Shown here one piece after another: positions 7,526-51,564 of a stretch of 64,000 nucleotides of DNA. Every line of letters begins with the position of its first letter. Position 1 is the stretch's first letter. The DNA comes from Sphagnum compactum (lineage: Eukaryota), in contig OZ234493.1 in NCBI GenBank assembly GCA_965153455.1, forward strand, positions 31,982,213-32,046,212. Direction: 5' to 3'. The notes beneath the pieces were generated by a model, which was not told the DNA's origin, did not search any database, and saw nothing but the letters and a program-made list of their open reading frames with translations. Both the position numbers and the translations under genes were made by a program.

Positions 7526-8227
7526 ACTGAGCTAAGCAAACACCAACCCAAGAATTAAAATGAAAAGAAAGAAAACCACAACCAAAACCCTAATTCAGGC
7601 ACTCAACTTCCAAAATCATCAACCCAAAAGCAGAATTTTTTCTCTTTTGAATCTTTTTACCCAATCTTCAAAATGCAAACAAAGAAACTCAAAAAAACTG
7701 GGTACCAAATTTGCTCAAGCAAAGACAACCCCACCCACCAAAAGAAATAAAATTCAAAGAGAATAAAAATGAAAAATTCAATCCCCACTCTTCTACAACA
7801 CTTCACTTCAAACCCAAGCAAGATTTCTACCCCCAAAAAAAAAACCTAAAGAAAATTTCCACCAAAAATTCCAATGCAAGCAAAACAAAATCCAAAACAT
7901 GGGGTACAAATGCTATCTAGGTAACCCATGATGGATCCCCAACAAAAAAGAACAAAACAAAACAAAACAAAAACAAACAAATCCCAAACCCTAATTTAGT
8001 GGACCCTGGAGATCTGAAAAAAGATAGCTCTTACCCTCCATGTTATTAGTCTTCTTCTCTTTTTGTTCAAAAGAAAGAGAAAGAGGGACAAGGACCCAAA
8101 ACCATAAAAGCAACAAGAAAGAGTTTAGGTACTTTTATAGGACTATGTTTTCTCTTGAGTACTATAACAACAATTGCAATAAAAATAGTGAGTGAAGTAG
8201 GATCTTACACTATGTAAAATCTTGGAG

Positions 8228-16363: not shown

Positions 16364-17180
16364 TCTCACAACCCTAACTTGAAGGAATGTGGGGATGGCA
16401 CTCACACTCCCGAAATGGGGACTTAAGAGTCCTCCGAGACTCCTAAAAATTCAGAGTTCAATGGCAAGGGTCAAAACACCTTGCATTGAAGTGTTTTTTA
16501 TACCGTTAGAAAGGTCTTGAAGTGTAGATGTCGAAAATGGCCTTGCATGAGCCATTTGGACATCTACAGCATAATTTATGAACGAAAGAAGGGCCTGGAA
16601 TCAAATTGGCAATTTGACCCCCGATCACTAAAAGTTGGGAATTGACCCGACGCCGATGTGGGCAGGTGGAGTGCAACATGCCGTTGGAAAGCTCTTGAGG
16701 AGAGCTACAAGTTTGCTTTAGACCTCATCCCAATCGAAGGTCTGAACAAGGAGTTATGAATTCCCAAAGTCTCGGGAGTCCAAACCGGGACAGTTTCGGG
16801 ACTCCTCCTTGGGAGTCCCAGGAAAAAGAGCCATTTGGATGTGCCGCGGAGTAACGCAGAGAATACTATATGGGGGAAGGTGGTGGCTTCCCCCGAGTTC
16901 GGCCCGTGGTGAGTCATGTGAGTCCATGGTCGCCCGTGGCTTGTCCTAGCACTGAAAGTGCTTCCAAATGTGAACTCATCAACTTGTTGGTTAGTTTGAT
17001 GCAGGTTCGAGTAACTAAGTAAAGCTTGTCCCTCGCCCTAGTCTGATCCCGGAGCTTCAGCACGCCCCTCTACCCCTTTTAGTGCTAGAAGCTGGGAGCG
17101 TGCACCAAGTTCCAAATTATTCCGTTGTTTGACTTCTTTGGACCCAACTTGGGTCTAATAAGGAACTTGGGAGCGCGTCA
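16364..17180 (+). mobile_element. Solo LTR (817 bp) related to the gypsy LTRs at 29027 and 42717
   Basis: Termini TCTCACAACCC (decayed TG) and GAGCGCGTCA, 5-bp TSD CCTCA (16359-63 and 17181-85). Collinear with the reverse complement of the gypsy LTR (ACTATA.GGGG.AAGGTGGTGGC, GGGAGTC motifs). Confidence 0.9.
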
Positions 17181-24368: not shown

Positions 24369-25188
24369 TGTCGCAACCCCACTTTGTCCAAGTGTGGGGG
24401 TGAAGCCCAACACTTGGAAAAGTTGGAGGTTTGGAGTCCTCCGGGACTCCCGAATGTTCAGAGCTCGACAGCAAGGCCCAAAACACCTCGCATTGGGGTG
24501 TCCTTGGTGTCATTGAAAAGGTCTTGAAACGTAGATATCGAAAATGGCCTCGCATTGGTCATTTGGGCTTCTGCAGCCCAAGTTATGGGCAAAAGAAGGG
24601 CCGGGAGTCAAACTGGCAATTTGACTCCCGACCACTAAAAGTCGGGAATTGACGTCTTCCCGACATCCGATTTGAAAGTGCAACATGGCGTTGGGAAGAT
24701 CTCAACAAGGGCTACAACTTTGGTTTAGACCTCGTTGCGATCGGACTCTGCACTCGGGAGTTCTGGCCGTTCAAAGTTCCGGGAGTCCAGTCGGGACAAT
24801 TTCGGGACTCCATTTCAGGAGTCCCAACAAAATATGCCATTTGGATGTAGCCTCCACGGTGAGCTGCAGAGATAACTATAAGGGGGAAGGTGGTGGCTTC
24901 CCCCGAGTTCGGGCCGTGGTGAGTCAAGTAGTCCAAAGTGCCCGTCGCTTGTCCCAACACCCAAGGGTGTTCTCGAATGTGAACTAACCCATTTGTGGTT
25001 GGTTTTGTATGCAGATTCGTGCTTGATCTACTAGTCCATCTTCCTAGTCTAATCCCGGGGCTTCCAACTCAACCCTCTACCCCTTTCTAGAGTTGGAAGT
25101 CGGGAGCGTGCCCTTCGGTCCCAACTTTCCGTAACTTCACATTGGTGAACCCTCAAGTGGGTTCACCCCGGGACCAAGGAGTGCGTCA
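24369..25188 (+). mobile_element. Solo LTR (820 bp) inserted in the leader of the outer LINE
   Basis: TGTCGCAACCC...GAGTGCGTCA termini, perfect 5-bp TSD TGCCT (24364-68 and 25189-93), homologous to the other LTRs. Confidence 0.93.
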
Positions 25189-26269: not shown

Positions 26270-29026
26270 TGCATGGTATTATGGAACATGCACGGGGGTG
26301 GTGTAAAAAAATTGGAAACGGGGGTGCAAATACTAGAGTTATTTCAGGATGCTGACCTTGTATTATTAACCAAAACCTGACACTTCCCAGGCCAACATTT
26401 GCCACACGTTGAAGGGTTTGACTCACTTGCGGTTGTGCGCATTGTGAAGCCGGGAAGAACAAAAACGATAAAACATAACGGGGGGTTGCTGTTTACTTTC
26501 GTAGTCACTTCAGCCCAAACCTATCATAGTGGAAGGAAGGAAGCCATGATTCTTATCTATGGCTACGGGTCAGCAGGGGTGTTGCCCTCACTTGTATGTC
26601 TGCGTGGTGTATGCTGCCCCTATTGGCTCCAAACATGAGAGCGAATCCTTGTTCTAAAACCTAGCAACAGATATTGCTGAAGTTCAGACTCTAGGGGGCA
26701 TAGTATTATTGGGAGGGGATTTTAATATGCGTACTGCAACGTTACCAGATACCATTGACACTAGCGACCTTTGTGAACTATTACAGGCGCCTGAACTTGT
26801 TGAGACTTAGCAACCAAGTGTTGTGGTTAAACGACAGAATCGCGACGCTAATGTTGGCGGTTAGGGCCGCAAGCTCCTGGACCTATGTTGTGACGCTAGA
26901 TTGCTCATCCTCAATGGCTGAACACTTGGTGACGAATCAAGGGAGTTCATTTGCTTGGCAAATGGGCGGCGTAGCACTATCGATTATATTGTTGGCTCAC
27001 CTGCAATTTGGCAAGTTGCTACACACCTCGAGGTGATAACAGATGACACCCGCTATTGTGCGATGGGGGGAGACTCTGACCACAGGCCGTTACGCCTACG
27101 GTTGAACATCGATTATAACTTTGTTGAGCCACAACATATAGTTGTAACAATTTTTTTTTACCTAGGTTCAAATTTGATAAATCAAAAGCTGAAGAGTATC
27201 AGTTTGCACTAGCAGCGAATCTTGGAAACCTATGGGTTGCTTACTCAACCGGGCATCTGGGGGTAGATGGGTTAGCTGACCTACTGCAATAGTGCGTGGG
27301 TGTTACAGCAGAGTCTACTTTTAGTAACAAGCCTTCGGGAGGAAACTATAGAATGACACATTGCTATAAACCCTGGTTTGATGCTGACGGCTATATAATG
27401 AAGCGTGAGCTGAGGCTCTAGCTGAAAGCCAACCCCGATTCACACGTCATTAAACATCAGGCAAGTAAACTTAAAAAATTACTAAAAAAGAACAGAATTT
27501 TTTGGGAAACTACAAGAACTCAACATATGTGTACGTTTGCTAAGGTGCATGCAGTTTCGTTCTGGAAAAAGTACCGGCCAAGGGCACCCGTTGTGGGCAA
27601 AATCAATGCAGCTACGTTTTTGGAAAGCTTCCGCGAGCTAGTTGGCCAGTCTCCGCCACCCATACGGCTGCGAATTGATCACTCGGCCCAGGTGATGGAA
27701 CCTCCACCTAGCCACACCCTAAACATAGATATCACACTTGCTAAGCTGCTTGAGGCGCTAAAAAATCTACAAAGGAATAAGGCTGCTGGTTTGGATGGTA
27801 TGAAAGCTGAGTTCATTTTGGATGCGGGAGAGCTGCTACACATGCCATTATTGACAGTGTTCAATTGCTTTCTAATGGAAGGCTTTCCAAAAGCCCTTTC
27901 CACTGGGGTGGTCCACGTGCTCTTTAAAAGGGGCGATGCCTCTGAATTTGATAACTATAGGGGGACAACTATTGGGCCTATCTTAGCAAAGTTATTCACT
28001 ATGATCCTTGACAAAAGGCTGAGCGAGTGGGCTGAACAACATGGGTTGCGTGCCAAGGGTCAAGCTGGGTTCGCAAAGATTACAACACTACTGACCAACT
28101 CTTCATACTGCAAACTCTGATAAATAATAGTAAAGCAAAAAAGAAGCCACTTTATTGTTGCTTTGTGGACTTCAAAAAGACGTTCGATACTGTGCCGCGT
28201 GAAGTGTTGTGGGAAGTGTTGGCTAGCCTTGGGGTGGAAGGACGCTTCTTGTGATGCCTATAGGCGATGTATACCAAGGATACCGTACACATCAACCACC
28301 CAAGCGAGGGTGTCACCTCCAGCTTCAAGTGCCAACAAGGTGTGAAGCAAGGTTGCCCTCTCAGCCCCCTACTGTTTGGGCTATATTTGGATGCCTTGGA
28401 GGGGCGCCTGGACGGCAGAGAATGCGATGCACTGACCTTAGCAAACGTGCACGTATGGGTGTTGCTTTTTTGCAGATGACCTTGCTCTGACGTTGAAGTC
28501 AGAGCCGGGATTGCAACAATAGTTTAATGCGCTCCAGCAGTTCTGTGCTGAACGTGGACTTACAGTGAACGTGAAAAAAAACAAAAGTCATGGTGTTCAA
28601 CTCTACTGACCCATGCCAAGAGTTTGTGTTTGAAGGTGATGCTATTAAGCGTGTGCAGACCTTCAAATACCTGGGGATCTTGCTCGAGACCACCCCGAAC
28701 TTGGACAGTGCAGTGGAACATTTAGCAATTGCCAATAGGCGCTCGCTGTTCGCATTGAACCGCCGTTGTGCCGAGCTACGTATTATGGATGTCTAGTTAC
28801 GTTGTGACCTCTTCAACACGTTGGTGCATTCCACAACAAACTATGCTTGTGAGGTTTGGGTGGATTCCAAGAAAATAGAGGCTATTGAAGTAGTGTACCG
28901 AGGGTTCCTCAAGTCCTTGCTCGGGGTGTAAAAAACAACTAGCACGTCCATCGTGTTGGCAAAATTTGGCAAATTCCCCTTTGCACATTTTGCATGGGGA
29001 CAAGCGCTGTTGTACTATAACCGTGT
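26270..29026 (+). pseudogene. ORF2 5' part of the outer LINE: APE endonuclease and reverse transcriptase, with many stops and frameshifts
   Basis: WNMHG, LLGGDFN, STIDYIVGS, SDHRPL (APE); KAAGLDG, YRGTTIGPILAKLF, CFVDFKK, GVKQGCPLSPLLF, a frameshifted FADD region and FKYLG (RT). Confidence 0.85.
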
Positions 29027-29363
29027 TGACGCACTCCCAAATTCCTAGTGGACCCACTTGAGGGTCCAAGTGTGTGGCAATGCGGAAGGAGTTGGAACTT
29101 GGAGCACGCTCCCGACTTCTAGCACTAGAGGGGGGGGTGAGAGGGGTGTGCTAGAAGTCCCGGGATAGACTAGGAAGAGTTGACAAGCTTTACTCACTCA
29201 CACGGGCCTGCATGAAACCACACAAAGTGGTTAGAACTCATTCTGGGTCCTTTTGGTGTTGGGACAGCCACGGGTGAACTCGGACTCACTTTGACACACC
29301 ACACCCCGGGCTCGGGAGTAAGCCACCACCTTACTCCCTATAGTATACTCTGTGACTCGTCGC
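29027..29363 (-). repeat. 3' LTR, distal segment (TATA-like box, R/U5 side)
   Basis: Matches 42717-43054. Confidence 0.95.
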
Positions 29364-29469
29364 ATACGCTGCGGCTCGCCGCACTCCGTTCCCGGTTCAC
29401 GTATCAGAGAGGAGTGCAGTTCTAGATACCGAAATCAAAATTTCTTGATGTTTTCCTGAGCGCTTTTCG

Positions 29470-32363
29470 ATGGTGAAGTCGAATATCTCATCTGAGGCTG
29501 AAGATTTTCAAATCTCCAAACTTAATGAGTTCTCTCTCGTCGCTGATAGAATTAGGAAGGCGGGCCGAAACGCACGGCAAGGAGTTGGAAAGTTCAAAAG
29601 CAACACCAACCCTAACGGTGGCGGCGCCCGCCTTCCCGATCTTTCAAGCGGAGAAAATAATCAGCTCACCAACGGATCTTTTCCTTCGGCTGCTCCGATA
29701 GTGCTGTGCTCTCACGATTCTCCTCACGAGCTAAGCGATGCTCCTCACGGAAAATTGCTCAGCGAAGGAGAGAGAAAAGCAACTCTAGCATCGGAGGCCC
29801 AGACTGTGCCCGTAAGCTCGACGAGATGTCTATTCCAGGACCGAGGGACGCAAGCAACCTCGGAAAGGAGCGATGGCGGAGCCCGAAAAGTTCATCTTCA
29901 ACGGTCATTTCCGGACTCTCTCCTCCCGGACATCCCAGCGAAAGCTTCAACGGACGCGGACGAGGCATCAGGTCAATCTTCTCCTCTCCAGGTACTCTCC
30001 TCTCAATCCCTCTCTCTCCCTCGTTTATCAGAACCCGTTTCTGTGCTCGGTGGGGGAAAGTTGGATCAGGAAGCCCGGGGAGCCACGGCTGCGAAGCAAG
30101 TGGCAAGGGAAGACACCTCAGCTGCAAGAGCGAAGGATCCAAGCGAGAAGAACGACAGAAGAACATTGAGAAAGAAGCCGAGCATACATACATCGGCTCC
30201 GCCTACAAATCCGACTCTGATCGTGCAGCCGGGCAATGGACCAGGAAGAACCTCCCCCGCGGGGGAGGAAACCCAAGGCCCATCGCCGGTTGACTACAGC
30301 GTGGAGCTCAAGGTGGATTTCCCGAAAGAAATGGTGAAAGAAATGCAAGGCAACGCGGCCAGGAAGGCTCGCAGAACAATCATTGGTCGAATGATCGAAG
30401 GAAGAGCGACCTTCAAAGAACTTCAAGAGGCTCTGAGGCTCCACCTTCCGGCCACATACACTTCAACAACGCTCTTAACGAGAGGCTTCTTCCTCGTCCT
30501 CTTCGAGAATGAGGAAGGAGCTACACAAACCAGAAAGCTCGCATCGGTGGACTGGAACGGGCTCAGCCTTTCCTTTTCCAGATACAACCCGAACTTTAAC
30601 GCCAACGCGCAAGGAGCGGAAGCACTCCTCACGCACACAATAAAGGTACAATTTCCTGACCTACACGAGCAGTTCAGAAACGAGAAAGCTCTCACCATAA
30701 TGGCGAGCAAGCTCGGTGAGGTGCTCGACATAGAGGAGGCAGACTCGTACATGAAGAGACCCGCCGGCCCAATGGTGACGATCGAAGTGAAGACCATCAC
30801 CAAGTTAGCGGGATATATCAGGATCCCCTCCATGGCGGAGGGCGCCTCCGTCACGGACACAATTCGCCAGAGCATTCTGTACTCGGGACTCCCAAACCAA
30901 TGCAGAAAATGCCGAAGATTCGGGCATCAAGCCCGAACGTGCAACAACGCAAGAAGCAAAACATATGCTGGGGTCACAACACACAACTCCTCATCAAACG
31001 CGACTGACGGCGGGCTGCTGAGAGCGCGCCAATCCCTTGGAATCGCCACGCGCGAGAAGGAGCACGGCCCCACTCTGACAGCGGCTCACGATCCGCAGAC
31101 CGCCGATAGAATACGAGATCGCACGGGAACGAGGAAGTCGTGGAATCGTACCTCGGCCCCACTCCCATCGACAGATACGACAAGAGCTCAGGTAAGCAAT
31201 CGGTCATCGAATCCTCACCGAAGCTCACCAATCGAAGCTCAGACGGACCTAGAAATGTCCGAACCTTCATCGCCTCCAAGCCGGGCAAGGGGTGAAACTC
31301 GGGCGGAGCCCAAAAATCCCCCAGAGACTGCCACGACACCTAAAAACAAACTTTGTTTCGGGCTTCCCGGAATCCCCGACCCGCAAGCACAAAAGTTGGA
31401 CGCGAAGACTAACCCATTCGCGATCTTTAACGAAGGAAGCCGAGGGGAAAGCAAGTGCAACAGGCAGCAAGAGGACGTCTCGGAAGGCTGGCCCTTCCAA
31501 GGACAAAGGAAGCATGCTCCCAAGCTCGCTTCGCCCAGGCCGGAATCGCAACACGCTCTCCCCCACACCCCCCAACAAGACACAACGCCTGGAGGAAAAA
31601 GAGGACAGCTCCACTCAGAGGTTCACACCTCTTTCTTCTCTTCCCTCGGCATGTCAATCCCAGACAACGGAGAACCATTTAGAGCTAGGATTTGGCCGGT
31701 CCTTACAAGAGAGAAAAATGGAAATACGGAGACCTTAGTTCACTTCAAAAATCAGAACAAACCGAGCCTCCCGCTCAGTTAAGAATCACGGGTTCCGCCG
31801 AAGTCACTTGGAATCAGGACTCGGCCTGGGCGGACCTTATTCAAAGACTAGAGACGGAACTAGAAGAGAAAGTTCTGAGATACAAGTTAACGCTCAAAGA
31901 GCGGCCCCAACTAGAGTGGAGCTGGCAAAAGGAGCCGAGCAGAGGCGGGACGGAATGCACCATCCTAGCCCACATCGACTCGGGATCCAGTGCATTGAGC
32001 ACCCAAAACAAACGCCACTTGCACTGGAAAGTCCTGGACAACTCGCACGAAATGAGCAACGAGATGGAATTCTCGGCTCAAGCCCATAACCTGCTGATGA
32101 AGACCGAGGCCACGCTTTCGGAACACCAAGAAAGCAAAAACCGATCAGCCAGCATTCAAGCTTCGCCACAGGCGGCGAGAAAGAAGAGGTTCATCAAGCT
32201 CAACCTCAATCTATTTGACCCGCAGCCGACGATCAAGAACTGCCCCGCCATTCCGAACCAAGAGCAAGAGGTCGGAAGCAAAGAGGATCAAACAAGAGAG
32301 ACGCCAGAAGAAGAGGGATCGATCGGCCACAAGGCCGCCCGGAATCGACTCACCTATGTCTGA
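29470..32363 (+). pseudogene. LINE ORF1 (about 964 aa if a 1-nt deletion near 31779 is repaired): DUF4283-like region and CCHC knuckle
   Basis: RGFFLVLFEN...LSFSRYNPNF...IMASKLGEVLDI...YSGLPNQCRKCRRFGHQARTC. Adding one T joins LPLS to LRITGS of the 31692-32363 frame. Confidence 0.85.
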
Positions 32364-35300
32364 TAAAACGTTAACTCTGGCTTCCCTCAACGTCAGGGGC
32401 ATAAGGAGGGACTCCCCCAAACCCAAGGAGATCAAAGCTTGGATGGCCTCACTACCCTCCCCTCCTCAAGTCCTCCTAATTCAAGAGCATCACCTTGGCA
32501 AAGAAGACATTCAGAATGCAGCGAAGGGTATGGAATTTTGGAACGGTACCGCGCTGTGGAACGAGGGCATTCCCATGGGCCCCTCGCAAAGGATGAGTGC
32601 TGGAACGGCAATCTTGATAGACAGAGCGTCCTCCCCGCTCATCAAAGACCATGGCATTCTGATGGAAGGCCGGGCTCAATTCGTATCGCTCCAGTCCCCG
32701 GAGGGGGGGACTCTAACGATCATCAATGTGTACGCCCAGCGATCATCAAGAGAGAGGGCCCCCCTCTAGCGAAAAATCACCCAGGCGGATTTTGCAACGG
32801 ACCATGTCGTGGTGGGAGGGGACTTCAACCACCTCGAGGAGACAACACGACGTGGAACAGCCGGCGAAAGGCAAATCCACAGGCGGGAGGCAGCCGCCTG
32901 GCACCAAATGACATTGAGATATGGCCTCGCTGACGCCTGGACGCTCGATAGCTTCAGGAAGATGTCGAAGAAGAGCTTCACCTTCGACAACGGTAGAGCC
33001 GGAGCCCTTTCGGCCGTCTCAAGGATCGACAAATTTCTTGTCTCACAAGAAATCGAGGAAAGAGGCGGACGCATGGAGGCCGCGGCCTCCATCAGAAAAC
33101 TTTCCGACCACTTTCCGCTCATCATCACAATATGGGGACACCACCCACCACCAATCAATTCCGCTCGATTCTTCGACGCGGCCTTGCTCAGCGAGGAGAG
33201 TTGTAGAACCGAGATGTTGGAAGCTTGGAACGGGGGCACGGAGCGCCCCACTGATGGCCGCGGTTGGGCAAAATGGCTCGAGGAGTCATTGTGCAGAGTG
33301 AACCTTTGCAACGCGCGCATGGCAAAAGAAAAAAGGCGTGCTCAGGGGACACGCGTCAGATCATGCGCCAAAAAAATCCAGCTGGCGGAGCTCCAGCTGC
33401 AAAAGGACCCCACTAACGTGGAGGTACGAGAGATCCTGTCGGACGCCCAAGGCAAGCTGGCGGAATACTTCCAAGCCACCGTGGAACGCAACCGACACAT
33501 CACCGCCGCTAATTGGCTCAGGTACGGTGACACCTGCTCCAAACTTTTCTTCGATTTCCACCGAATAGGAAAAAAGAAGACGCTAATGAGGGAACTGGCA
33601 TCCGACGAGGGCACCATCGCGGGCCAATCAGACCTCAGCCACCACGTCACAAACTTCTACTCCCGCCTCTACACCTCGGAAGCCAGCAAGGCCGGCACCG
33701 TGGAAGCACAAGAGCGGTGCTAGCAAAGCGTCCCGAGCAAAATCTCAAGAGAGATGAACGAGAGACTGACACGTCGTCTCTCGCTAGAGGAGGTGCGCGA
33801 CGCCATCAGAGCTTTGCCCAAGGGCAAAGCGCCGGGACACGATGGCATCCCCATGGAGTTTTTCCACGAATTCGAGCAGGAGATCGCCCCGGATCTCTTG
33901 CAAGCCTTCTCGGAAATGCTCACTGAGGGCGCCACCTCGCCTTTCATCAACAAAGGAATCATAACTCTCATCCTGAAATCTGGGGACAGAGCAAAGCTCA
34001 ACAATTGGAGGCCCATAACGCTACTTGGTAGCGTATACAAAATCCTTGCAAAAATTCTCGCCGGAAGGCTCCAAGCGGTCCTCCCGGACACCATACGACC
34101 CAATCAGACGGGTTTCGTGGAAGGGAGGTCAATTCTCGACAACGTATTCATGGCGCAGGAAGCCCTCGGCTGGGCCGAAGAAAGCAATCAAGACTTGGTC
34201 TTATTCTTGCTTGACTTCGAAAAAGCCTTCGATCGTATCGAGTGGAATTTCCTATTCTCCGCTCTGGAAAAACTAGGATTCGATAGCACCTGGATTCGTT
34301 GGGTGACCTCTCTTTACAAGGGGGCTTCATCAGCCATCAAGATGAACGGAGTGACTGGCCCGGATTTCCAATTGGATAGATCGGTGAGGCAAGGTTGCCC
34401 CCTCGCACCGTATCTATTCATTCTTGCCACGGACGTCCTCGGATACTTACTGGCCGACCCCACACACGGGGTAGAGGGCTTGTCTCTCCCGAAGGGCGGC
34501 CTCATTAGAGACCAGACCTTCGCAGATGACACTGCCCTCTACCTCAGAGGAACTCCCTCCAATCTCGACAAGGCCCAAAGCGTCCTAGACCTATTTTGCG
34601 CTGCCTCAGGCGCAAAGATCAACTGGCACAAGTCAGCGGCCATATGGGCAAGCAACAACGAGCGGACTTGGCAATGGGGAACCGACGTAGGACTCAAATG
34701 GGTCCCGGACGGTGAAGGCATCAGGTACCTCGGAGTTCAGGTCGGCTCACACCTTCCGGCAGAAGCCAACTTTGATAAGATGATGATGGCCTTGAAAAGC
34801 AAGCTGATAAGTTGGAGCCACAGCCGTTTATCCCTGGCCGGAAGGATCTTGGTTGCCAACCAGGTCCTCCTGGCTTCCATGTGGTATATCGCCGCGTGTT
34901 GGAACCCCAACCCCCGGATGATCTCCCAGATCAGAGGAGTGGTCAGGAATTTCATCTGGGGCGGCAAGGACGCCCCAGCACGCGCCAAAGTCAAATGGGC
35001 CACACTAACGCTACCGACCCCCCAAGGGGGGTTGGGAATCATCGACCCCAAGGCCCAATCTGAGGCTCTGCTGGCCAAACTGCTCATCAGGGGGCTTGCC
35101 CCGGGAGGCGAACCCTGGAAAGAGCTCCTCCGACACAAGGCTGACCAGACCCGACTCCCCGTTCACAGCAAAGGTCCCAACACCCCGGACCTGAACTGGA
35201 TATTTGCCGCTCCAAAGGTCAAGAGAGTTCCTTGCTCTATGTGGAAGAGCATTATCGGCGCCTGGATGCACGTGAGACCCGGCCTCACCAAGGCGGAACC

Positions 35301-36714
35301 ATCCAACATGGCAGAAATTCTCAGACAACCGTTATTCGGCAACCCTCTAATCCTAAATGAGAGAGGAACTCCGCTAGGCCTGGGCGGCTCGAGGGACGGA
35401 AGCGCATTTGCGAGAGCCGGTCACTCTCGGACAAAGGACCTCTGGAACTCGGAGGCGCAAACCTGGAAAAGCCTCGCAGAACTCGGAATGAGCTACCATC
35501 CCTCAAACAGGGAATGCAAAGAAGCCATCACAGCCAGAATTCCGTGGAGCCTTTCGGAAAGCCCCAACACCCTGAAGGAAGGAGACTGGGTAAGCAACCC
35601 CACTCCCCTCGCAGGGGCCCCGCTCGACTGGATCTACTTCGTGCTCAGCGCAACGTCGGGTCAAGCCAAAGCGATCGAATTCAAAAGAAGCGCCCAAAGC
35701 GGACGCATCCAGGCCTCCACGAATCAAACCATCACCATCGCCACCGGAAACCTTCTTCCGGTCAGGATTCTGGCTCAAGACAGACCCGGATCCCACTTCA
35801 AAATAGCAAGAGAACTGAGGAATCCCAACAAGAAGACCTCGATCTTCTGGATCTTCGAAAACGGCTTCATTCAGGACCTTCCCTGGGACCCAGGGGAATG
35901 GCGATGGCATCCCTCCCAGCCTCTCGGGGACGCGCCTTTCTTCGGATACACCGCCAAGAGAGGCTACATCAATGCCAGGAGCCCTTCGTCCACCCCGCAC
36001 ATAATCTTGTTAATCCAAGGCCTCAATCTCCGCAACACAACAACGTCTCAAGCCATCGCCAGATTATGGCACAATGTTCGCCCAAGGAAAACGAGCACTC
36101 TCATCTGGCTCACCCTCAACCAGGGCCTTCCGGTGGGCTCCTGGCTCAAAATCATGGGCCTCCCCTCGCAATGCAAGGTGTGCAACTCGGGTGCCGAGGA
36201 GACCCCGCAACACTGCCTACTTGACTGTCCTAAAGCTCAAACCGCCTGGAAAGCTTATGAGCGTGTTTGGACCGAATGGAAAACCAACCGAAATCTTGAG
36301 ATCTCCTGGCCCTTCGTTCTCATCGGTGAAGCCGTCCTGGAATACGAAGATGATCCTCCTGGCCAACTCGCGTACCACACGGGCGGCTTCACTTATCCCC
36401 GCCAACCACTCGACATCCTCCGGAGCTTCGTCCTCTACTTTATCTGGTCGGAAAGGTGCAGAAAGCACTTCGATGATCATTACTCCCTTCGCAAAATCTT
36501 GCTAGACGCCTGGGCGGCGACGGTGGAGGTCGGTATGGCCACCTGGAAGGCTATTAGATCTCACCGTCAGCCCAAGGACCCTGAGATTCAGCTTAGCATT
36601 GAGCGTAATTTTAGGAAAGAATGGCTTCACCTGAACATTCTCGGGACGGACAGCGCCACCATTCGGTGGCACTACCTCCCCCCCCTGTACTTTCTCCATT
36701 TATCTAATAATTGA
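32356..36714 (+). pseudogene. LINE ORF2 (1452 codons): APE endonuclease, RT and C-terminal zinc finger, with two in-frame TAG stops
   Basis: SLNVRG, IQEH, INVYA, GGDFN, SRIDKF, SDHFP; KAPGHDG, NWRPITLL, LDFEKAFD, RQGCPL, FADD, RYLG; CKVC...HCLLDC. The three ORF pieces share one frame, with stops at 32767 and 33721. Confidence 0.93.
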
Positions 36715-36751
36715 AGGGGCTGCTGCCTCCCTCTCTGCAGGGATTCACCCC

Positions 36752-37380
36752 CTGTGACTCGTCGCGGGGGTGGCATCCAAATGGCCTTTTTGTCCCGGGA
36801 CTCCCGGGACTCCCGCGTGGGAGTCCCGAAATCGCGCATTTTCGGGACTCCCGCGACTTTGAAGCTTCGTAACTATCGGAGCAGACCTCCGATCGACTCG
36901 TCGTCTGAAGCAAAGTTGTAGGTCTCGTCGAGACCTTTCCAACGGTATGTCGCACGTTTTCTGCAGCCAAGTATTTCGGGTCGATTCCCGACTTTTAGTG
37001 GTCGGGAGTCAAAACTGGCGGACTCCCGGGAGTTCGACTCCCGGGCCTTCTTTTGGCCATAACTTGTGTTTCAGATGTCCAAATGAGCAATGCGAGCCCA
37101 TTTTAGACATCTACACTTCAAGAGCTTTCCATTGATATAAAGAGCGCAACAAGTCATTGAGTTTTGACCCCTCAAAACGCTCTCTAAAGTTTTGAGAGTC
37201 CTTTTGGGACTCCACTCTCACCAACTCCCAACATGGGAGTTCACTTGGGAGTGTGAGGGTTCACTCCCTCACACTCTTTGCACTCCCGGGAGCATGTGAT
37301 ATGACTCCCGGGTCTACTTATAGGCTCGCACACTTGCGACCCCCTTGCCTTGGTCGCGAGCCAAGGCTAGGGTTGCGACA
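36752..37380 (-). repeat. 3' LTR, proximal (U3) segment, including the second copy of the LINE TSD
   Basis: Matches 43041-43669. Confidence 0.95.
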
Positions 37381-37390
37381 CTCTCCCCCA
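37381..37390 (-). promoter_or_regulatory. Polypurine tract
   Basis: Minus strand reads TGGGGGAGAG directly before the 3' LTR TG. Confidence 0.88.
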
Positions 37391-38176
37391 CTAGAAAAAG
37401 AGGTCAATGTCCTCATTGACACTTAGAATTTATTTCTTCAATGCAATTGCTTTTCTTTGGATCCTTGGCCATCAAATGCCGACTCCTTGCGGCTTGGACC
37501 TTGTCTCAAGCTAACTTAGGCGTCCCCAAGCTTCCAACACTCTCTTGACAAGTCCAAGAGGGTCTCATAAAAAACCCTCTTCCAATGCTTCGTCAAAAGA
37601 CCTAAACTAGCCTAATTGACGAAGCCCTCATTTGGGAAGCACTTTCCATCCTTCCCCTCATGAGGAACTCAAGTCAAGTCTAATCTTGACCTAAGCTACT
37701 TGACATGACTCCTTTCCCAATCTCGCGCCTCGGTCACAACAACCAAGCCTTAACAAAAAGGTATGCCTATCAAGGTACGAGAAGCAACGTTTAGGCTCTG
37801 CAAAGGCCTAAGTCCCAAGCTACGCGATTATAGTACGCGAACGGGGTCATGACTTCCCGCGTTGGCTACCACTACCAACCAACCCTTCGGGATGCATTTT
37901 GGGCATGTGCACGTCCTCGCAAGCTCACCTTGCTTGCCTCCTCTTTTGGGACCAAGATTTCTCTTAGCCCCCAAGTAGGAGTCCGATTTTGATTTGAGCT
38001 TACGCAAGAGAGTTCCATTTGTCCATGCCATTTGACAACCCCTTTTCTATCATACTCACTTATGTTTGTGATGCAATCTCTTCGAAGTTTTAAAATTTAG
38101 CCTTCATTTCACTTGCAACTTGATGTGGTACATTTGTGTAACTTTCCGCCCCACTAAAAGAAAGGTGATGTCCTCA

Positions 38177-41100
38177 TCACGCTCTATGTTTCCTTTGCCT
38201 CTTTGCCGGTCTATTGTGGAATTCTTCTATGGCTTCTTGGGCATGTTCCATATCGGACTCATTCACCCAAGATGCCTCTATGGGATGGTAACCTTTCCAC
38301 TTGACCAAGTACTCCCGCTCTCGCCCCCTTAATTGCTTTGACTTGAGCACGGCCTCCACTTCAAACTCGGGTTCATTGTGAACCAAGTCCGGAGGGGGCC
38401 TTGAGTTGTGCTCTCGATCGGGCCTTGAGGCATCACGGGCGACCGGCTTCAAAAGCGAAACATGAAATATGGGATGAACCTTAAGATTTTTCGGTAGTTC
38501 TAATTTGTAAGTGTCGGGAAATTTCTTTTCCAACACTTTGAATGGACCCGCATATGGGCCCAAGAACTTATGACTCAATCCTTCGGGCAACCGGAAGTTC
38601 TTGATGTTCAACCATACTTCATCCCCTTCTCCAAAATTCACCTCTCGACGGGACTTGTCCGCAAAACTCTTGTACCTTTTATGCGCCTTCTCAAGATTGG
38701 CCTTGGCCATCTCCCACAAGCGCCGCCTTTCTTCATCAAGTTGTGTGACCATGGGCACTTCCTCACTTGCATCATTTGGGGGTTGCCCAACCCAAGTTGT
38801 GGGCACAATTGGTGACTTGCCCGTCACCATTTGAAATGGGGTGGCCCCCGTTGCCGAATGCTCCGAATTGTTGTAACAAAATTCGGCCAACTCCAAATGG
38901 TCCACCCAATCTTGTTGATCCGCCGCCACATAATTCCTTAGGAATTGTTGGATCACCAAGTTCACCCTCTCGGTTTGTCCATCCGTTTGGGGCCGAAAGG
39001 AAGTGCTCATCTTGAGCTCGGACCCCATGCGCTTCCACAAGGCTCTCCAAAACTTGCTTGTGAACTTGGGGTCTCGGTCCGACACAATGTCCTTTGGGAG
39101 GCCATGATGCTTGAACACGTGGATGAAGAACAACCTTCCCGTCTCTTGGGCCGTGGCACTATCCTTGGTAGGAATGAAATGTGCCATCTTGCTAAACCGA
39201 TCCACCACCACCATGATCGCATCAAACCCCTTTGATGGTGGCAAACTCACCATGAAATCCATGGAGACACTTTCCCACGGCCCTTCCGGAATGGGTAATG
39301 GTCGCAACAATCCCGCTTGCTTTTTATTGAGTGCCCGGTTTTGTTGGCAAGTCAAGCAAGTCTTCACGTATTCCTCCGCATCCTCCTTCAAGTTGGGCCA
39401 ATAATAGGACTTCTTGAGGAATGTGGTGGTGCGCTTTGCACCACCGTGACCCGCAAGGGGCCCATCATGGCATTCCTTCAAAAGCACATCTCTTAGCCTC
39501 CCTTTTGGAACATAGAGCCGACTTTGCTTATACCACAAAAGTCCATCTCGCAAGTGGAAGTGGGACTTGATCCCCTTTTGAATGTCTTGCTTCCTCTCCT
39601 TGGCAAATTCATCCCGGCGGCTCCCAAGTCGAACATCCTTTTGGAACTTTGTTTCCCCCACATACACCACTTTGAGTTGGTGTTTCCGACTCAATGCATC
39701 CGGCACCACATTTTCCTTCCCGGGCTTATGCCGAATGTCCACATTGAACAAAGCCAATGTGTCTTGCCATCTCACTTGCTTTGATGACAACTTTGGTTGA
39801 GTTGCAAAGTACTTCAAGGTGACATTGTCGGTCCACACAACCACGTCCTTGGAGCCTATGTAATGGCCCCAAGTCTTGAGACAATGGATGACGGCCCACA
39901 TTTCCTTCTCATGGGTTGGCCACCTTCGCTCCGTCTCACTTAGCTTCTTGCTTTCAAAGGCCACCGGCCTTCCATCTTGCACTAGGACTCCTCCTATGGC
40001 GAAGTCGGACACATCGGAATGGATCTCAAAGTCCTTGTCAAAATCCGGCAACTTCAACACGGGCGCCTTCACCAAAATGCCCTTCAAGGTTTCAAAGGCC
40101 TCATTGCATGCCTTTTCCCATTCATAAGTTCCGGATGACTTCTTCAAAAGGTTTGTCAAAGGTGCGGCTATCTTTGCAAAGTTCTTGATGAACTTGCGAT
40201 AATAAGATGCCAATCCTAAAAAGGACCTTAAGGCGGGAACGGAGTTAGGCGGTTCCCAATCCAAGATTGCCTTCACCTTGTGGTCATCCATTTTCAAACC
40301 TTCTTGGGTGATCCTATGCCCAAGGAAGTCCACCTCCGAGACTCCAAACTCACATTTCTCGAACTTGGCATACAACTTGTTTTCTTTTAACCTTTGGAAC
40401 ACCTTACGAAGGTGCTCCGCATGCTCCTTCAAGGAGCTACTATAGATCAAAATGTCGTCTATGTAGACGACCACAAAATCATCAAGCCACTCTCGGAAAA
40501 TATCATTCATGAGGGTGCAAAATGTGGCGGGTGCATTGGTGAGCCCAAATGGCATCACCAAGAATTCATATGAACCATACCTTGTGCGGCAAGCGGTCTT
40601 TTCCTCATCCCCTTGTGCAATTCGAATTTGGTAATACCCGGAACGTAGGTCAATCCTACTAAACACTTTGGCTCCCGAAAGTCGATCAAACAAGTCATCA
40701 ATCCGAAGCAATGGATACCGGTTCTTCACGGTCACCTTGTTGAGGGCTCTATAATCCACACACATCCTCAAAGTCCCATCCTTCTTGTGAACAAAAAGGA
40801 CGGGGGCCCCATATGGTGACTTGCTAGGCTTGATGTATCCCTTTGCAAGGAGTTCTTCGAGTTGAACCTTGAGCTTTTTAAACTCTTCATGACTCATTCG
40901 ATACGGGGCCTTGGCGGGAGGTGCCACTCTCGGGACCACCTCAATGGCATGGTCCACTTGTCTTCTCGGGGGCAACTCGTCGGGCAACTCTTCGGGCATC
41001 ACATCCGGGAATTCCTCTAACACTTGCTTGATGCACTTGTGGGGGCTCACCACCTTGGTGGCCTCCTTTGGTTCAAACTCATCCAACACCCGCATCACAC

Positions 41101-42666
41101 ATAACATGCCATAGCCTCCCCCACACTCTTTTTCCAAGTTCTTTCCCAACATCAAGTGGATGGTGGTCCCACCCACACTAAGCACTTCATGTGCCTTCAC
41201 TCGCACAATCCCACTCTTGGATGGGATCCTAACTAGCCTATTGTGCCCTTCTATGAGCACATTGTTTTGTGTGATGAATTCCATTCCCAAAATGCAATCC
41301 ATTCCCCCTAAGGTGGAGACTAACAAATCCACCTTGCCTCTCCAATTCCCCAATTGGAGTGGCACATCTCTTGCTTGCAACTTGGTGGGATGGGGAATCC
41401 CATCCGCAAAGTGCACCTCTATGGGTGCCTTGAGCTCCTCCAACCGGAGCTCCATTCTTTGGGCACTTCTTGGGTTATGAAGTTGTGGGAAGCGCATGTG
41501 TCCAAAAGACATAAAACTTCCCGCTTAGAAACTTTCCCTTTTAAGAAAATAAGGTGGTTACATTCACCTTGGACTAGGCTAGCGGAAAGGGCACTTACCT
41601 TAGGAGCCCCATTCCCCGATTTGGGTTTGGGGCAATCCTTGGAGTAATGCCCCACTTCATTACAATTGAAGTATACTCCCTTGGGTTTCCCACTAGCATC
41701 TCCCTTGGGTTGGCTCACTTTGAAAGGAGCCCCCTTCTTGATAAAATTTCCTTTGGGTTTAAAACCCGAGCCTTGGAATTGTTTAGGCTTTTCCCGTTTT
41801 GAGGTGTCTTGGCCTCGGTTCCATTCCCCTTCATGGCGTGCCTTCTTATGAGGGAACTTGTTATCCCTTTTGAATCCGGACTTCTCACCACGCCCAACAT
41901 CCGAAAAGCCTTCCACTTTCATGATGGCTTCGGTTAGTGAGGCGGGCCAATTCTCCTCAAGTTTGGGTTTGGCCCAAGTGGGAAGTCCCATCACAAAATG
42001 GCACACTCGGTCTAACTCATGCATATGCCGAATCTCAAGCATGAGTTCGGAATAAGCCCTCACATATTGGCGCAAGTTGTCATTGCTCCCATTCTCAAGG
42101 TCACGAAGTTTGCATCTTGAAATGTAATCGGAATTCTTGGGAATGAATTCCAACTCAATACGTTCCTTGAAGAATTCCCATGTGTAGCCATGGGTCTTCC
42201 CTTCTTCTTGCCTCACCGTCCTCCACCATGTGGAGGCATAGCCCTTCAAATAGGATTGGGCAAGTTCCACGGCCGAATGCCGACCAACCTTGGCGGCATG
42301 AAGGTAGTCCTCCATTTCCGCAAGCCAAACATCCACAACCTTCCGATCCCGGGCCCCATCAAAGTTCCCGGGCCTAGCGGGCTTGAATCCCACACTTTTG
42401 GATGAACCTCCCTTGAGGGCCGCAACCAATTCACTAAAATCGGGCCTATTCATTTTGAGTAGGACCTCCAATTGTTCCGGGGTGAAGAGGACTCCATTTG
42501 GTTGTTCCTCTTCATTTTCATGCTCCTCAAGGCTAACACGGTCTTCTTCATCTTCGGAATGGTTTTGTTCCTCCTCCCTCATAGCTTCGGGAGGAACCTC
42601 TAGGTCTTGGGTGGGTTCTTCCACCACGGGCTCTTGGACTAGCTTGCGGGTCTTCTTTGGTGCCAT
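38177..42666 (-). pseudogene. Gag-Pol polyprotein with one frameshift near 41468
   Basis: Starts MAPKKTRK at 42666. Gag core; Zn knuckle YFNCNEVGHYSKDC (first Cys replaced by Tyr); protease [15 protein letters not shown]; RNase H; integrase HDGPLAGH...CLTC and DD35E core; GPYAGPF; chromodomain FEVEAVL...YLVKWKGY...SW. Confidence 0.93.
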
Positions 42667-42702
42667 CGGGACTCTCCAATAAGTGGATCGAGCTCTCCCC
42701 GA

Positions 42703-42714
42703 GCTCTGATACCA
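42703..42714 (-). promoter_or_regulatory. Primer-binding site complementary to the initiator tRNA-Met 3' end
   Basis: Minus strand reads TGGTATCAGAGC 2 nt after the 5' LTR. Confidence 0.92.
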
Positions 42715-42716
42715 AA

Positions 42717-43669
42717 TGACGCACTCCCAAATTCCTAGTGGACCCACTTGAGGGTCCAAGTGTGTGGCAATGCGGAAGGAGTTGGAACTTGGAGCACGCT
42801 CCCGACTTCTAGCACTAGAGGGGGGGGGTGAGAGGGGTGTGCTAGAAGTCCCGGGATAGACTAGGAAGAGTTGACAAGCTTTACTCACTCACACGGGCCT
42901 GCATGAAACCACACAAAGTGGTTAGAACTCATTCTGGGTCCTTTTGGTGTTGAGACAGCCACGGGTGAACTCGGACTCACTTTGACACACCACACCCCGG
43001 GCTCGGGAGTAAGCCACCACCTTACTCCCTATAGTATACTCTATGACTCGTTGCGGGGGTGGCATCCAAATGGCCTTTTTGTCCCGGGACTCCCAGGACT
43101 CCCGCGTGGGAGTCCCGAAATCGCGCATTTTCGGGACTCCCGCGACTTTGAAGCTTCGTAACTATCGGAGCAGACCTCCGATCGACTCGCCGTCTGAAGC
43201 AAAGTTGTAGGTCTCGTCGAGACCTTTCCAACGGTATGTCGCACGTTTTCTGCAGCCAAGTATTTCGGGTCGATTCCCGACTTTTAGTGGTCGGGAGTCA
43301 AAACTGGCGGACTCCCGGGAGTTCGACTCCCGGGCCTTCTTTTGGCCATAACTTGTGTTTCAGATGTCCAAATGAGCAATGCGAGCCCATTTTAGACATC
43401 TACACTTCAAGAGCTTTCCATTGATATAAAGAGCGCAACAAGCCATTGAGTTTTGACCCCTCAAAACGCTCTCTGAAGTTTCGGGAGTCCTTTTGGGACT
43501 CCACTCTCACCAACTCCCAACATGGGAGTTCACTTGGGAGTGTGAGGGTTCACTCCCTCACACTCTTTGCACTCCCGGGAGCATGTGATATGACTCCCGG
43601 GTCTACTTATAGGCCCGCACACTTGCGACCCCCTTGCCTTGGTCGCGAGCCAAGGCTAGGGTTGCGACA
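42717..43669 (-). repeat. 5' LTR (953 bp) of the chromovirus
   Basis: Near-identical to 29027-29363 joined to 36766-37380. Confidence 0.95.
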
Positions 43670-45487: not shown

Positions 45488-48400
45488 CTCTCACATATTT
45501 TTTCTCACTGCCCCACCCATCTACCTTTTGTCTCAGCTTCCTGAGAACAGTTTCTACTCTTGAGCTGCCAATTGTGATCCTCTCACATGGTCGGTACTAG
45601 TGATGACAGTGGCCACTAGAGAAGAATATATCACATGTCTGCACTCCTGAGAAAGAAAAAACTTTTCGTATGAGGTTCTTACCATGCTGCACACATCCAA
45701 GATCACATACGGAAATCTGATGCTCTACTCTTTTTCTTGTCAGATCCCAGTTGAGCTTTCCTTAAATTGGCACAATAGACCCAGGATCCTATGCAGCCAC
45801 TAGACTTCTTGTCAGATCCCACTTGAGTTTTCCTTACTTTGGCACAATAGACCCAATATCCTTTGCAGCCACTAGACTTCTTGTCAAATCCCAGTTGAGC
45901 TTTCTTTCCTTACTTGACACAATAGACCCCAGGATCCCTGAACCCAACAACCAACCCACTCCATTACTTTATCCTTCAATTGACAACACAAGCCCACAAC
46001 AATGGAGAGTGTCTTCTTTTGCTATCTGCACAGACGCATCCTAGAATATCTCCGGACTAGATCTGTCAATGTTCAGTAAAACCTCATGGATTGGTAATTG
46101 CAGACAAACTTTGTGTACCTGCTGTTGGAGCCTGAATGCATGAGCTGTAGTTCCTCATGAATAAGATCAAAAAGCATACAGTTCAGCAACTTCTGAAGTG
46201 AAGACAATATGTGAGATTGACTAGGTACATATGAGGACTTATCAGGATTGGTTTTTCTTCTTGACCACACTGTGATTTGGACTGACAACTATGTAGTTGA
46301 AATGCATGGCTGTGGTGCAGGCAAGTCAAGTCCTTACTGTGTGTTGACATGTGGTGCGCAACGGTCCAAAACTCCAATCGCCCAAGGTAGGTACAAATTC
46401 TGGAATCTTGTTGCCAAATATGCAGCTTGAATCAAATCCATCATGACGTAGTCCAGTGGCAAAAAACCAAGAAAGGAATTAAGGCCTTCAAGTAAGATGC
46501 AAAGAGGAAATGTACTTGCAATTGCAGTTCATATATCTGTGTAGTGGCAGCATCAAACTGACAGCCTTTGAACTGGTTGTGTTCAAATTCCATTACATAC
46601 AGTTTGGCTGCAAAAATTAATCCACAAGAAATAATTAGGTTTTACTTCCCATATGTGATGAGAATCAAGCCCCCCATCCAATGCTCACTGCAGATGAAGC
46701 CAACTGTTGCTATGCAGATGCAGGTGCCAATCCTTACTGGAACACAACATTCATGTTCAAGATCGACAGAAGCTGTCAAGAAATTGGCATTAAGATCTAC
46801 TGCCATAATACCCTTGCAGCTGATGATGAGCTTGCCTACACAAGGTATGCAGTCTACAACAAGCAATTTGCACAACTCTCCACAGAGCTAAATTTTTATA
46901 AAGACAGCTCCTTACAGAAATGTGACAGAAGGTTTTTAACCACAACCAATACATGCATCAATCATTGAACCTTGGAGTTTAGTCAATGGTTCTCACCCAA
47001 CTGGTTTATTGAGAGCCTTTCTTTTCTTGTTTGCTTGTTTTTTGGGGGGGGTCGTTGGCTTCATGGCTGCAGTTTATCGTTCAGGAAGATATTCTTTGAG
47101 GGCCATTTTGTGCCCCTTCAAAGTTTCAATATGCTGCGCCCTTCTGGCCACGTCGGAGGCCAGATCAGAATGTCTCTCACATTCTTCAGTGATACTCTGG
47201 TGCGAGCCTCCTTCTGCATCAAAAAACCTAAAGACTTTGGGGCAAGAAGTTAGTTGCTCCATTCTGATTTGATTGGTAAATCACTGATGTTGGCATGTTA
47301 AAATCCCAAGCTTACACTCCCTCTTCTAATCGAGCCTCATAAACCTGTGTTGCAACAGCAAACATGTTGCCTGAGATTATGTGGCTATAGTAGTCAGTTA
47401 TCAGACAGCTGCATTTGCAAAAGGATGCTAAGACATCATGATGCATATGTGTCCTGGTTGTCATTGCAATCCACTTTTCTATATCTTCATCAACTAGACA
47501 TTAAGAGATTGAGGACTCTATTAATGTTTTTTTTGTTGCATATGTTGCAGAAGCATCAACAGGGCCAGTATTCTAATCCAGAAGCCACACACCATAGAAC
47601 TGTCTCAGAACCATACAGGTCAGAATACACCCCGGAGGCTAGTCTGAGGCCCTTGGGAGGTCAACCTGCTGCTGCAAGGCCAGATTACAGATCTGACAGA
47701 GGTTATTCATCTCCAGGCTCAATCCGATCACCAGCTCCAGGTTACCCTAATCAAGTTCAGTTTCATCCTAATCAGCAGCAGATCAGTTTTGAAGATCCTC
47801 AAGACCCTCGTCAGTCTTATGACAACTATGATGACTATTGCCCTCCTCCCAACATACAAGCTAAGCCCAAAGATCAATGCTCTGTGCAACAATATGATCT
47901 TGGAGTCCAAGCAGCTCCAAGTCCTCACACTGTTGACCAGAATTCAATTCCTGGTCACATTCCAAGGCGTCATCCTGATCCTGCCTCTCGGCCCATTGTA
48001 CCACAACCTACAGGCCATAGGTCTGCAGAGCATTATGTTGATACCATTCCGGCAGAAATTACTCAACACAGAGGTCATCAACCTGGAAAAGGCCATCAAG
48101 ATCCCACCAATTCCACCAAATCAATACAACCCACAGGTAGCCATTCTGAGGAGTGTTACAATGATCCTGCTCTGGCTGCTACACCAAGGTCTAGGCCTTT
48201 AACTCATCGTCCTGAGCAAGAACAGCATGCAGCCAGTGCATACAGTTCAGTAGCAACACCACTGGCAATTTTCTCTGGTCGTGATCGGCGTCTCCCTCAC
48301 CTGCTGGAGCATGCACCACCTGGTCATCAACAGGCTCCTGGGGTTGAGCTCTCGTCTGGAGTGGCACCACCTGTGGTACAGAAAAAGGCTCAACCTGGTA

Positions 48401-51400: not shown

Positions 51401-51564
51401 TAGGAGAGAGGAATAGACATCAAGTTCAGCACATGAAAGGAGGCCAACAGATGAATAGAGGTGGAGGGCAGGGTGGACAAGGTCAGCAAATGCATAGTGG
51501 CTTTGTTCAGGGGAGGCCAAGACCACGTCAGCAAGCCATGCAACCTGGAGGTTATGGTGCATAA
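45359..51564 (+). CDS. C2-domain protein (elicitor-responsive/PP16-like C2) with a very long low-complexity tail, about 1466 aa
   Basis: Exons 45359-45425, 46321-46386, 46718-46844, 47073-47199 and 47551-51564 join in frame at GT-AG sites: MPFGELEVYVEGALGIKDTGIFGKSSPYCVLTCG...GANPYWNTTFMF...DDELAY...GGQIRMSLTF, then a 4-kb last exon. Confidence 0.85.
45734..45940. repeat. About 72-bp tandem repeat, 3 copies, in intron 1 of the C2 gene
   Basis: TTCTTGTCAGATCCCAGTTGAG...CACAATAGACCCAGGATCC..GCAGCCACTAGAC recurs. A (CT)n(CA)n tract lies at 45436-45484. Confidence 0.8.

Follow-up and report, generated by a model that had tools for sequence, protein, structure and literature searches.

A long-lived lineage of plant L1-type long interspersed nuclear elements (LINEs) very probably prefers one defined position in the long terminal repeat (LTR) of a chromovirus family, and enters it always in antisense orientation. 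The element that points to this lineage lies in a 64,000-nucleotide stretch of Sphagnum compactum DNA (assembly GCA_965153455.1, contig OZ234493.1, positions 31,982,213 to 32,046,212 of the forward strand). This whole stretch is called the window, and coordinates below are those of the window. Here a full-length LINE interrupts the 3' LTR of a chromovirus, and relatives of this LINE recovered from metagenome contigs repeatedly show the same arrangement.

A reading of the window made from the sequence alone (the sequence-only reading) had placed the LINE antisense within the chromovirus 3' LTR, between the copies of a perfect 14-bp target-site duplication (TSD). Both junctions and the domain content of the two elements agree with that placement. 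The features that define the insertion and its target are these:

29350-29363, no strand assigned: left copy of the TSD, 14 bp, CTGTGACTCGTCGC, identical to the right copy at 14 of 14 positions
29364-36751, plus strand: full-length LINE, 7,388 bp, ending ...GGGATTCACCCC; junctions read directly
36752-36765, no strand assigned: right copy of the TSD, 14 bp, CTGTGACTCGTCGC, a repeat family in the window self-comparison
29027-29363, minus strand: chromovirus 3' LTR, promoter-proximal and R-U5 part (the 3' third in LTR sense), from self-alignment
36766-37380, minus strand: chromovirus 3' LTR, U3 part (the 5' two thirds in LTR sense), from self-alignment
37381-42716, minus strand: chromovirus internal region, with gag at 41419-42888 and pol at 38177-41512 (Pfam)
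42717-43669, minus strand: chromovirus 5' LTR, with an unoccupied target at 43041-43054
29314-29338, no strand assigned: conserved LTR hairpin GGGAGTAAG-CCACCAC-CTTACTCCC, its stem kept through paired changes among LTR variants
29339-29349, no strand assigned: TATA-like motif TATAGTATACT, directly adjoining the nick site
16497-17180, plus strand: diverged solo LTR of the chromovirus LTR family, 72% identity, site unoccupied
24510-25111, plus strand: second diverged solo LTR, site unoccupied

Excision of the LINE together with one TSD copy rebuilds a 953-bp LTR (29027-29363 joined to 36766-37380) that is 98.6% identical, end to end, to the 5' LTR. In the 5' LTR a single copy of the target is present, CTATGACTCGTTGC, with 2 of its 14 positions unlike the TSD. 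Since the rebuilt LTR matches a 5' LTR with an empty site, the LINE insertion was a clean event that postdates integration of the LTR element. The chromovirus lies on the minus strand: its 1,111-residue pol frame encodes protease, reverse transcriptase (RT), RNase H, integrase, and a carboxyl-terminal Chromo domain, and its gag frame encodes Retrotrans_gag and zf-CCHC domains (all by Pfam). The LINE lies on the plus strand, and is therefore antisense to its host element.

Four public sequencing runs that contain the window stretch were examined (X1, X4, X7, and X21 are cited here). In these runs, reads from many LTR copies continue from the LTR end at 29027 into ...GCTCTGATACCA, which we take to be the complement of the tRNA-Met primer-binding site; this places U5 at the low-coordinate LTR end. 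The empty LTR site is seen directly, as the joint 29349 to 36752, in 14 reads of run X21 and in contigs of X1 and X7.

The sequence-only reading had supposed that the abundant LTRs may serve this LINE family as a dedicated target, and had proposed to tabulate the flanks of other copies. That tabulation, run on metagenome relatives from a related host, bears the supposition out. A search of metagenome contigs with the carboxyl-terminal 604 residues of the second open reading frame (ORF2) gave 266 pattern matches and 111 relatives, of which the best 80 were used (loci L001-L080; 55-83% identity, on contigs up to 132 kb). Grouped at 98% or more identity over at least 1 kb, these 80 loci form 52 distinct clusters, many of them assembled independently in two to four samples. 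The 3' junction is readable in 41 of the 52. In 25 of these 41 (61%), the same LTR family follows the LINE end, all 25 times in the orientation seen in the window; LTR homology past the junction reaches the LTR end where divergence permits (L029/61, L046, L010). In 21 clusters, as in the window, the junction lies exactly 22 nucleotides (nt) upstream of the LTR anchor motif ACATCCAAATGGC. The L027 junction is offset by 19 nt from the common position, and the L004 flank, only 17 nt long, is identical to the L061 flank.

Two further arrangements display the same target. In L057 and L058/59 the 14-nt target follows the LINE end, and after it another LINE begins, head-to-tail, with its 5' end and ORF1. 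In L049, whose 3' end lies off the contig, the left part of the LTR and the 14 nt are followed by a truncated LINE. Merging pairs that may be redundant (L057/L058, L004/L061, and L011/L069, the last sharing a flank at 96.6% identity) leaves 23 of 38, again 61%. Kojima's working criterion takes more than 20% of flanks of one kind as target specificity (PMC4494074; this and the other published works are cited from excerpts), and the 61% observed here lies above that threshold. LTR targeting is a strong preference and no absolute rule, because 16 of the 41 junctions lie elsewhere.

Do these junctions record many insertions, or one insertion copied many times? The LTR-borne copies differ in how the target was altered: the window and L057 have a 14-bp TSD, L012/13/45 carry a duplicated stretch of about 135-150 bp (87% identity), and L027 has lost 19 nt of the target. 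(An automatic TSD search recovered only L012/13/45.) Some copies with the same 3' junction are truncated (L013, L049, and L057), and the points of 5' truncation vary among events (near ORF2 residues 583, 633, and 733). Unoccupied LTRs of the same subfamilies are found both in the relatives' loci and in the window, and some share the variable 22-nt stretch with occupied ones: L067e with the L017 flank, L005e with L029, and L071e with L010. In the window itself, one LTR of the 98.6%-identical pair is occupied.

A Spearman coefficient of 0.10 (p 0.11) over 231 pairs means that LINE identity and flank identity are uncorrelated. LINEs nearest to each other (93%) occupy LTRs that are 76-79% alike, and the closest flanks (88-90%) carry LINEs that are 69-73% alike. 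In a maximum-likelihood tree of the LINEs with 42 rows, the 26 LTR-site rows are spread across both major branches; the window's own clade consists of LTR-site rows (4 of 4), and off-target copies are interspersed elsewhere. Differences per site between copies are 0.24, 0.16, and 0.47 at codon positions 1, 2, and 3 (136 pairs among 17 rows). This third-position excess implies that selection kept ORF2 working while the LINE lineages diverged, and that they did not diverge as passengers. Because there are empty LTRs, varied TSDs, tandem LINEs, and uncoupled LINE and flank divergence, the comparisons argue for repeated independent insertion rather than co-amplification. Some loci may nevertheless be duplicates or orthologues, namely L057 with L058 and L004 with L061, each pair about 3-6% apart on the tree.

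Two simpler histories have to be set beside targeted insertion. An unspecific L1 might have landed by chance in a very abundant LTR, with transposable elements piling up in gene-poor regions. Summed sequencing depths do indicate that the LTR is far more abundant than the LINE, the window is a nest of transposable elements, and the chromovirus has in turn inserted many times into LINE bodies. Chance nesting does not, however, account for 21 independent copies that share both nucleotide and orientation with the window: even with the generous assumptions that the LTR family makes up half of the genome, with a 5-nt window and one orientation, the probability of finding at least 21 of 41 junctions at one position is below 1e-49. 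Nor would misassembly produce the pattern, as the same junctions were assembled independently in two to four samples. For the family, chance nesting is refuted, and we give it next to no credence.

Alternatively, a single old LINE-in-LTR event might have been multiplied by chromovirus retrotransposition, segmental duplication, or gene conversion among LTRs. The decay of all the relatives is compatible with such a history, as is the closeness of L057 to L058 and of L004 to L061, which suffices for orthologues or duplicates. Copies made in this way should carry their flanks with them, and here LINE and flank divergence are uncoupled; empty and occupied LTRs coexist within the same LTR subfamilies; TSD lengths and 5' truncation points differ among events; the third-position excess signifies divergence under coding selection; one member of the window's LTR pair is still empty; and copies with the same tail exist outside LTRs. 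Multiplication of a single event is thus very improbable, if slightly less so than chance nesting.

Several observations weigh against the preference for the LTR site, or restrict how far it can be carried. The 16 of 41 junctions that lie outside the chromovirus LTR family have been mentioned, and one clade of 5 rows in the LINE tree is entirely off-target. Copies other than that in the window all come from metagenome contigs of a related host, so that the window's own genome shows one LTR junction only (n=1). The last 20 nt of the LINE, searched as an exact match, have no match in metagenome contigs, and the tables of the four public runs hold no listing of the sequence after other LINE 3' ends. 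The 5' junction was read for five events only (window, L013, L027, L049, and L057). A stop-free stretch of the carboxyl-terminal 604 codons is present in 0 of 40 relatives examined: all are fossils, and no active copy was seen. Two hairpins are predicted in the LINE 3' untranslated region (UTR), and compensatory change was found in 0 of 9 predicted pairs, the sequence being highly conserved. (Searches of viral contigs with the last 20 nt of the LINE, again as an exact match, and with ORF1 gave no match either.)

The junctions locate both breaks. The priming nick falls on the LTR-sense strand, 5'-...CAG^AG(T/A)ATACTATA-3', after LTR nucleotide 629 of 953; the first nick proposed in the sequence-only reading, CACAG^AGTATACTATAG in LTR sense, follows from both window junctions. 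The sequence likewise contains the other elements noted there, namely the palindrome AGTATACT and both solo-LTR motifs. The nick lies directly upstream of the TATA-like motif and the conserved hairpin, both of them within 36 nt. The opposite strand was broken at a distance of 14 nt in the window and L057, which L049 also fits, but of about 140 nt in one event. Since the LINE tail finishes in ...C(T/C)CTG and the TSD opens with CTG, the primer end has at most 3 nt available for pairing.

The target itself has a distinctive organization. On the LINE-sense strand, to the left of the nick, lies a hairpin of 8-9 bp with a CCACCAC loop that is the most conserved part of the LTR region. Comparison of the window with the LTR copies of L005, L013, L014, L035, L036, L060, L067, and L071 reveals several variants: GGGGGAAG-CCACCAC-CTTCCCCC; the window stem, GGGAGTAAG/CTTACTCCC; and the L035 stem, GGGGGATG/CATCCCCC. 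These include paired changes, AAG/CTT to ATG/CAT and GGGGGAAG/CTTCCCCC to GGGAGTAAG/CTTACTCCC. The hairpin is followed by (A/T)TATAGTAT(T/A)CT, and the 22 nt to the right of the nick vary among LTR subfamilies. The conserved hairpin may be a promoter or leader element of the LTR, or part of what the LINE recognizes.

From these sequences we infer that the endonuclease sets the specificity. The ORF2 protein would read the conserved left block through its apurinic-type endonuclease (APE) domain, perhaps together with other parts of the protein, and nick beside that block. It would bind its own RNA by the conserved 3' end, as expected for the "stringent" type, and target-primed reverse transcription would start on the ...CAG-3' primer. 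Abundant LTRs would provide a renewable and harmless landing pad, and a minority of insertions would go to other, mostly A-rich places, like those that ordinary L1s enter.

Targeting could also be real with the site chosen differently: by pairing between LINE RNA and the LTR, through the RNA 3' end or through read-through RNA that carries LTR sequence, or by a host or chromovirus factor at the promoter or hairpin, the nick itself being rather unspecific. The LINE tail ...TTC(T/AC)(C/T)CTG does resemble the LTR around the nick, ...TATTCT|CTG; off-target flanks start with A in 12 of 16 cases, as for ordinary L1 nicking; and the hairpin and TATA-like motif close to the nick would offer a factor its site. 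Against pairing, the TSD boundaries in the window and L057 leave only 3 nt (CTG) for contact with the primer. Against an unspecific nick, the second nick is also position-specific in the events read, falling 14 nt from the first both in the window and in L057, a spacing that L049 also fits; such a fixed second nick resembles the action of sequence-specific APE enzymes such as that of R1Bm (PMC1919474). Site choice by pairing or by a factor is the less probable version of targeting, though far more credible than chance nesting or a single multiplied event, and choice by the endonuclease is preferred here.

Does the LINE gain a promoter from this position? The TATA-like motif, a palindrome in the LTR subfamily of the window, begins 25 nt ahead of the point where the window LINE starts, a distance made up of 11 nt and the 14-nt TSD. 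This is the classical distance from TATA box to start site, facing in the opposite way. In LTR sense, the LINE insertion separates U3 from the TATA-like motif. This geometry is compatible with the promoter parasitism proposed in the sequence-only reading. Use of the chromovirus core promoter by the LINE lineage is a speculative reading that we consider rather unlikely; it is drawn from one full-length 5' junction. If it were true, each insertion would sever the U3 of the chromovirus from the TATA box that serves it, and the LINE would acquire from the LTR an external promoter, with transcription beginning at its first base. That would meet the need of a LINE for a promoter, much as R2 relies on rRNA transcription. 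The lineage would then be the first sequence-specific LINE of land plants, independent of the animal Tx1 and R1 groups, and in an arms race with its target.

The 3' end of the LINE is as constant as its target. All copies have in common the tail TGA-TGGGGCTGYTGCCTCC...GGGGTTC(A/T)C(Y)CT(G), and no poly(A) was found in the window or in any copy with a readable 3' end. In the window, the element stops 37 nt past the ORF2 stop codon. Lack of poly(A) together with a conserved tail fits the "stringent" plant L1 type, and not the relaxed, mammalian type of L1.

At off-target sites the tail stops variably, at ...CT, ...CTC, or ...CTG. The flank starts with A in 12 of the 16 non-LTR clusters, and the off-target flanks (L011, L021, L034, L039, L041, L042, L053, L056, L064, L069, L074, L077, and L080) usually open with one to five A residues. 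Such flanks suggest that the LINE either inserts in another, L1-like way at these sites or carries a minimal A tail. No TSD was readable for copies outside LTRs, whose seeming 5' ends mark either the edge of a contig or the point where a chromovirus inserted. Three separate LINE copies on different tree branches, L039 (4837-4911), L056 (4843-4890), and L074 (2469-2544), carry the same 45-75-nt 3' flank, AAAGAGGGGATA.GGGGTGAAAGCAG..CCAAAGACAGG, beyond which the flanks diverge. This common flank, which has no match in an Rfam search, may be a second target, short or terminal.

The window LINE has the following parts:

29470-31782, plus strand: ORF1, 770 residues, with DUF4283 (Pfam PF14111, E 5.7e-07) and a CCHC knuckle (CRKCRRFGHQARTC)
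32356-36714, plus strand: ORF2, encoding endonuclease, RT, and zf-RVT; 1,452 codons, with two in-frame TAG
32380-33111, plus strand: APE domain (Pfam Exo_endo_phos PF03372, E 5e-09, with TAG read as X)
33979-34743, plus strand: RT domain (Pfam RVT_1 PF00078, E 5.4e-33)
36040-36249, plus strand: zf-RVT zinc-binding domain (Pfam PF13966, E 6.8e-12)
36715-36751, plus strand: LINE 3' UTR, 37 nt, conserved family-wide, with two small predicted hairpins

The two TAG codons of ORF2 lie at 32767-32769 and 33721-33723, and because of them this copy is full length but dead. The sequence-only reading had called the LINE complete, which holds for its length and not for its coding capacity. At position 32768, other family copies in the public runs have G, so that the codon reads TGG (Trp) instead of TAG. 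No second copy of the LINE was found within the 64-kb window, and an Rfam search of the window gave no match. A short RT-like stretch at 28093-28398 (plus strand), 30% identical to residues 680-780 of the LINE ORF2, lies about 630 nt outside the chromovirus 3' LTR and is a remnant of another retroelement.

To what group does this LINE belong? The DUF4283 and CCHC combination in ORF1 and the zf-RVT domain in ORF2 are typical of plant L1s. Both are present here, along with the APE and RT order of ORF2, and the nearest named protein relatives are from Closterium and Cryptomeria, both streptophytes. Domain content and nearest named relatives together point to the plant L1 group. The insertions bear the marks of target-primed reverse transcription, namely a 14-bp TSD and 5'-truncated copies. 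Target-specific insertion of the kind common in the Tx1 clade is a shared behaviour and no proof of membership. Land-plant L1s are monophyletic, and Tx1 groups with a vertebrate lineage termed F (Ohshima, PMC3747384).

In the excerpts cited, most target-specific families of non-LTR retrotransposons belong to the early-branched, Tx1, and R1 groups, and their targets include transposons (Kojima and Jurka, PMC4640811); sequence-specific LINEs of the APE type come mainly from the animal Tx1 and R1 clades (PMC4640811). The closest precedent is a pair of crocodilian Tx1 families that prefer LTR retrotransposons (PMC4494074). Like the lineage described here, these are APE LINEs that choose another transposon as a multicopy target, form tandem copies that sandwich the TSD, and show a preference that is strong but not absolute (PMC4494074). 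They differ in belonging to the Tx1 clade, which that source describes as found in animals (PMC4494074); the Sphagnum element has plant L1 hallmarks and streptophyte relatives.

Elements of the R1 clade also resemble this lineage. They have no need of poly(A), and the 3' end of their RNA has a short stretch in common with the target. The R1 TSD is 14 bp. Like the Sphagnum element, R1Bm of the 28S rDNA is an APE LINE, and its endonuclease cuts both strands at fixed positions in a multicopy target (PMC1919474). Clade, host kingdom, and target (an rRNA gene) all differ. One monocot L1 lineage (LINE1-1_ZM), of the stringent type, has a conserved, structured 3' end (Ohshima, PMC3472496, PMC3747384) and, as here, a conserved 3' end in place of reliance on poly(A). 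The excerpts of these two papers report no target specificity for it, and the likeness is one of type.

Human LINE-1 offers a more distant comparison. The ORF2 of the window is colinear with human LINE-1 ORF2p over some 900 residues (residues 3-906, E 5e-60), with the same endonuclease-RT architecture, and the two elements share TSDs, 5' truncation, and target-primed reverse transcription. Human LINE-1, in contrast, nicks loosely at T-rich/A sites and needs poly(A), whereas the present lineage places 61% of its readable junctions in one LTR family and has no poly(A).

To our knowledge, L1s of plants are regarded as lacking target specificity. The literature searched, with subscription journals and Repbase notes outside the search, describes no plant LINE directed to a defined site. 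Targeting of this sort is known from a few animal LINEs, and the present element is a variant of such target-specific APE LINEs that is of plant L1 type and directed to a chromovirus LTR. A plant L1 lineage that chooses one LTR nucleotide would show that specificity arose independently in the green lineage. It would show, in nature, one retrotransposon exploiting another and perhaps inactivating the promoter of its target. It would also supply an enzyme of plant origin whose landing site is defined and multicopy. (Site-specific retrotransposon proteins, those of R2, are under development for gene insertion, according to the excerpted literature.) Annotation is also concerned, as composite LINE-in-LTR structures could pass for new LTR families.

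Nesting occurs in the reverse direction too. LINE bodies abut LTR termini (...GCGTCA| or ...GTTGCGACA|) at varied LINE positions in L004, L010, L011, L014, L021/22, L033, L035/36, and L060; by sequence, these are chromovirus insertions into LINEs, as integrase would make. In L036, for instance, an LTR copy at 1077-1763 interrupts the LINE, and the target site of that LTR is itself unoccupied. In L002 (4963-5192) and L001 (4775-4897) the LTR flank is broken about 110 nt past the LINE end by the start of another LTR (LTR positions 1-235, 90% identity). Two artefactual origins of the LINE/LTR junction were considered and ruled out. The junction is internal to the LTR and fixed, and is therefore no integrase product left by a chromovirus that integrated beside a LINE. 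Assembly chimeras are dismissed in turn: the stretch shared at the junction is at most 7 nt, and the same junctions recur in separate assemblies.

In the public runs, LTR depth is 14,600-138,000 and summed LINE depth is 150-820, reaching 1,127 in the 3' bin. As depth sums, not copy numbers, these figures correspond to hundreds to thousands of copy-equivalents of the LTR against roughly 4-30, or some tens, of the LINE. Contigs that match the LINE exactly have a depth of 39 in run X4. The same run holds a 1,288-nt contig, corresponding to 32949-34235, that is 92% identical to the LINE and has a depth of 160. A related LINE subfamily with several near-identical, hence young, copies may therefore exist in the window's species.

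Elsewhere in the window, a 1,405-residue open frame at 47347-51564 (plus strand) matches no Pfam family; two stretches of it, 48405-48887 and 50774-51159, are tandemly repeated. A 265-residue open frame at 6738-7535 encloses two tandem arrays, at 6808-7167 and 7240-7457, whose periods are 72 nt and about 44 nt.

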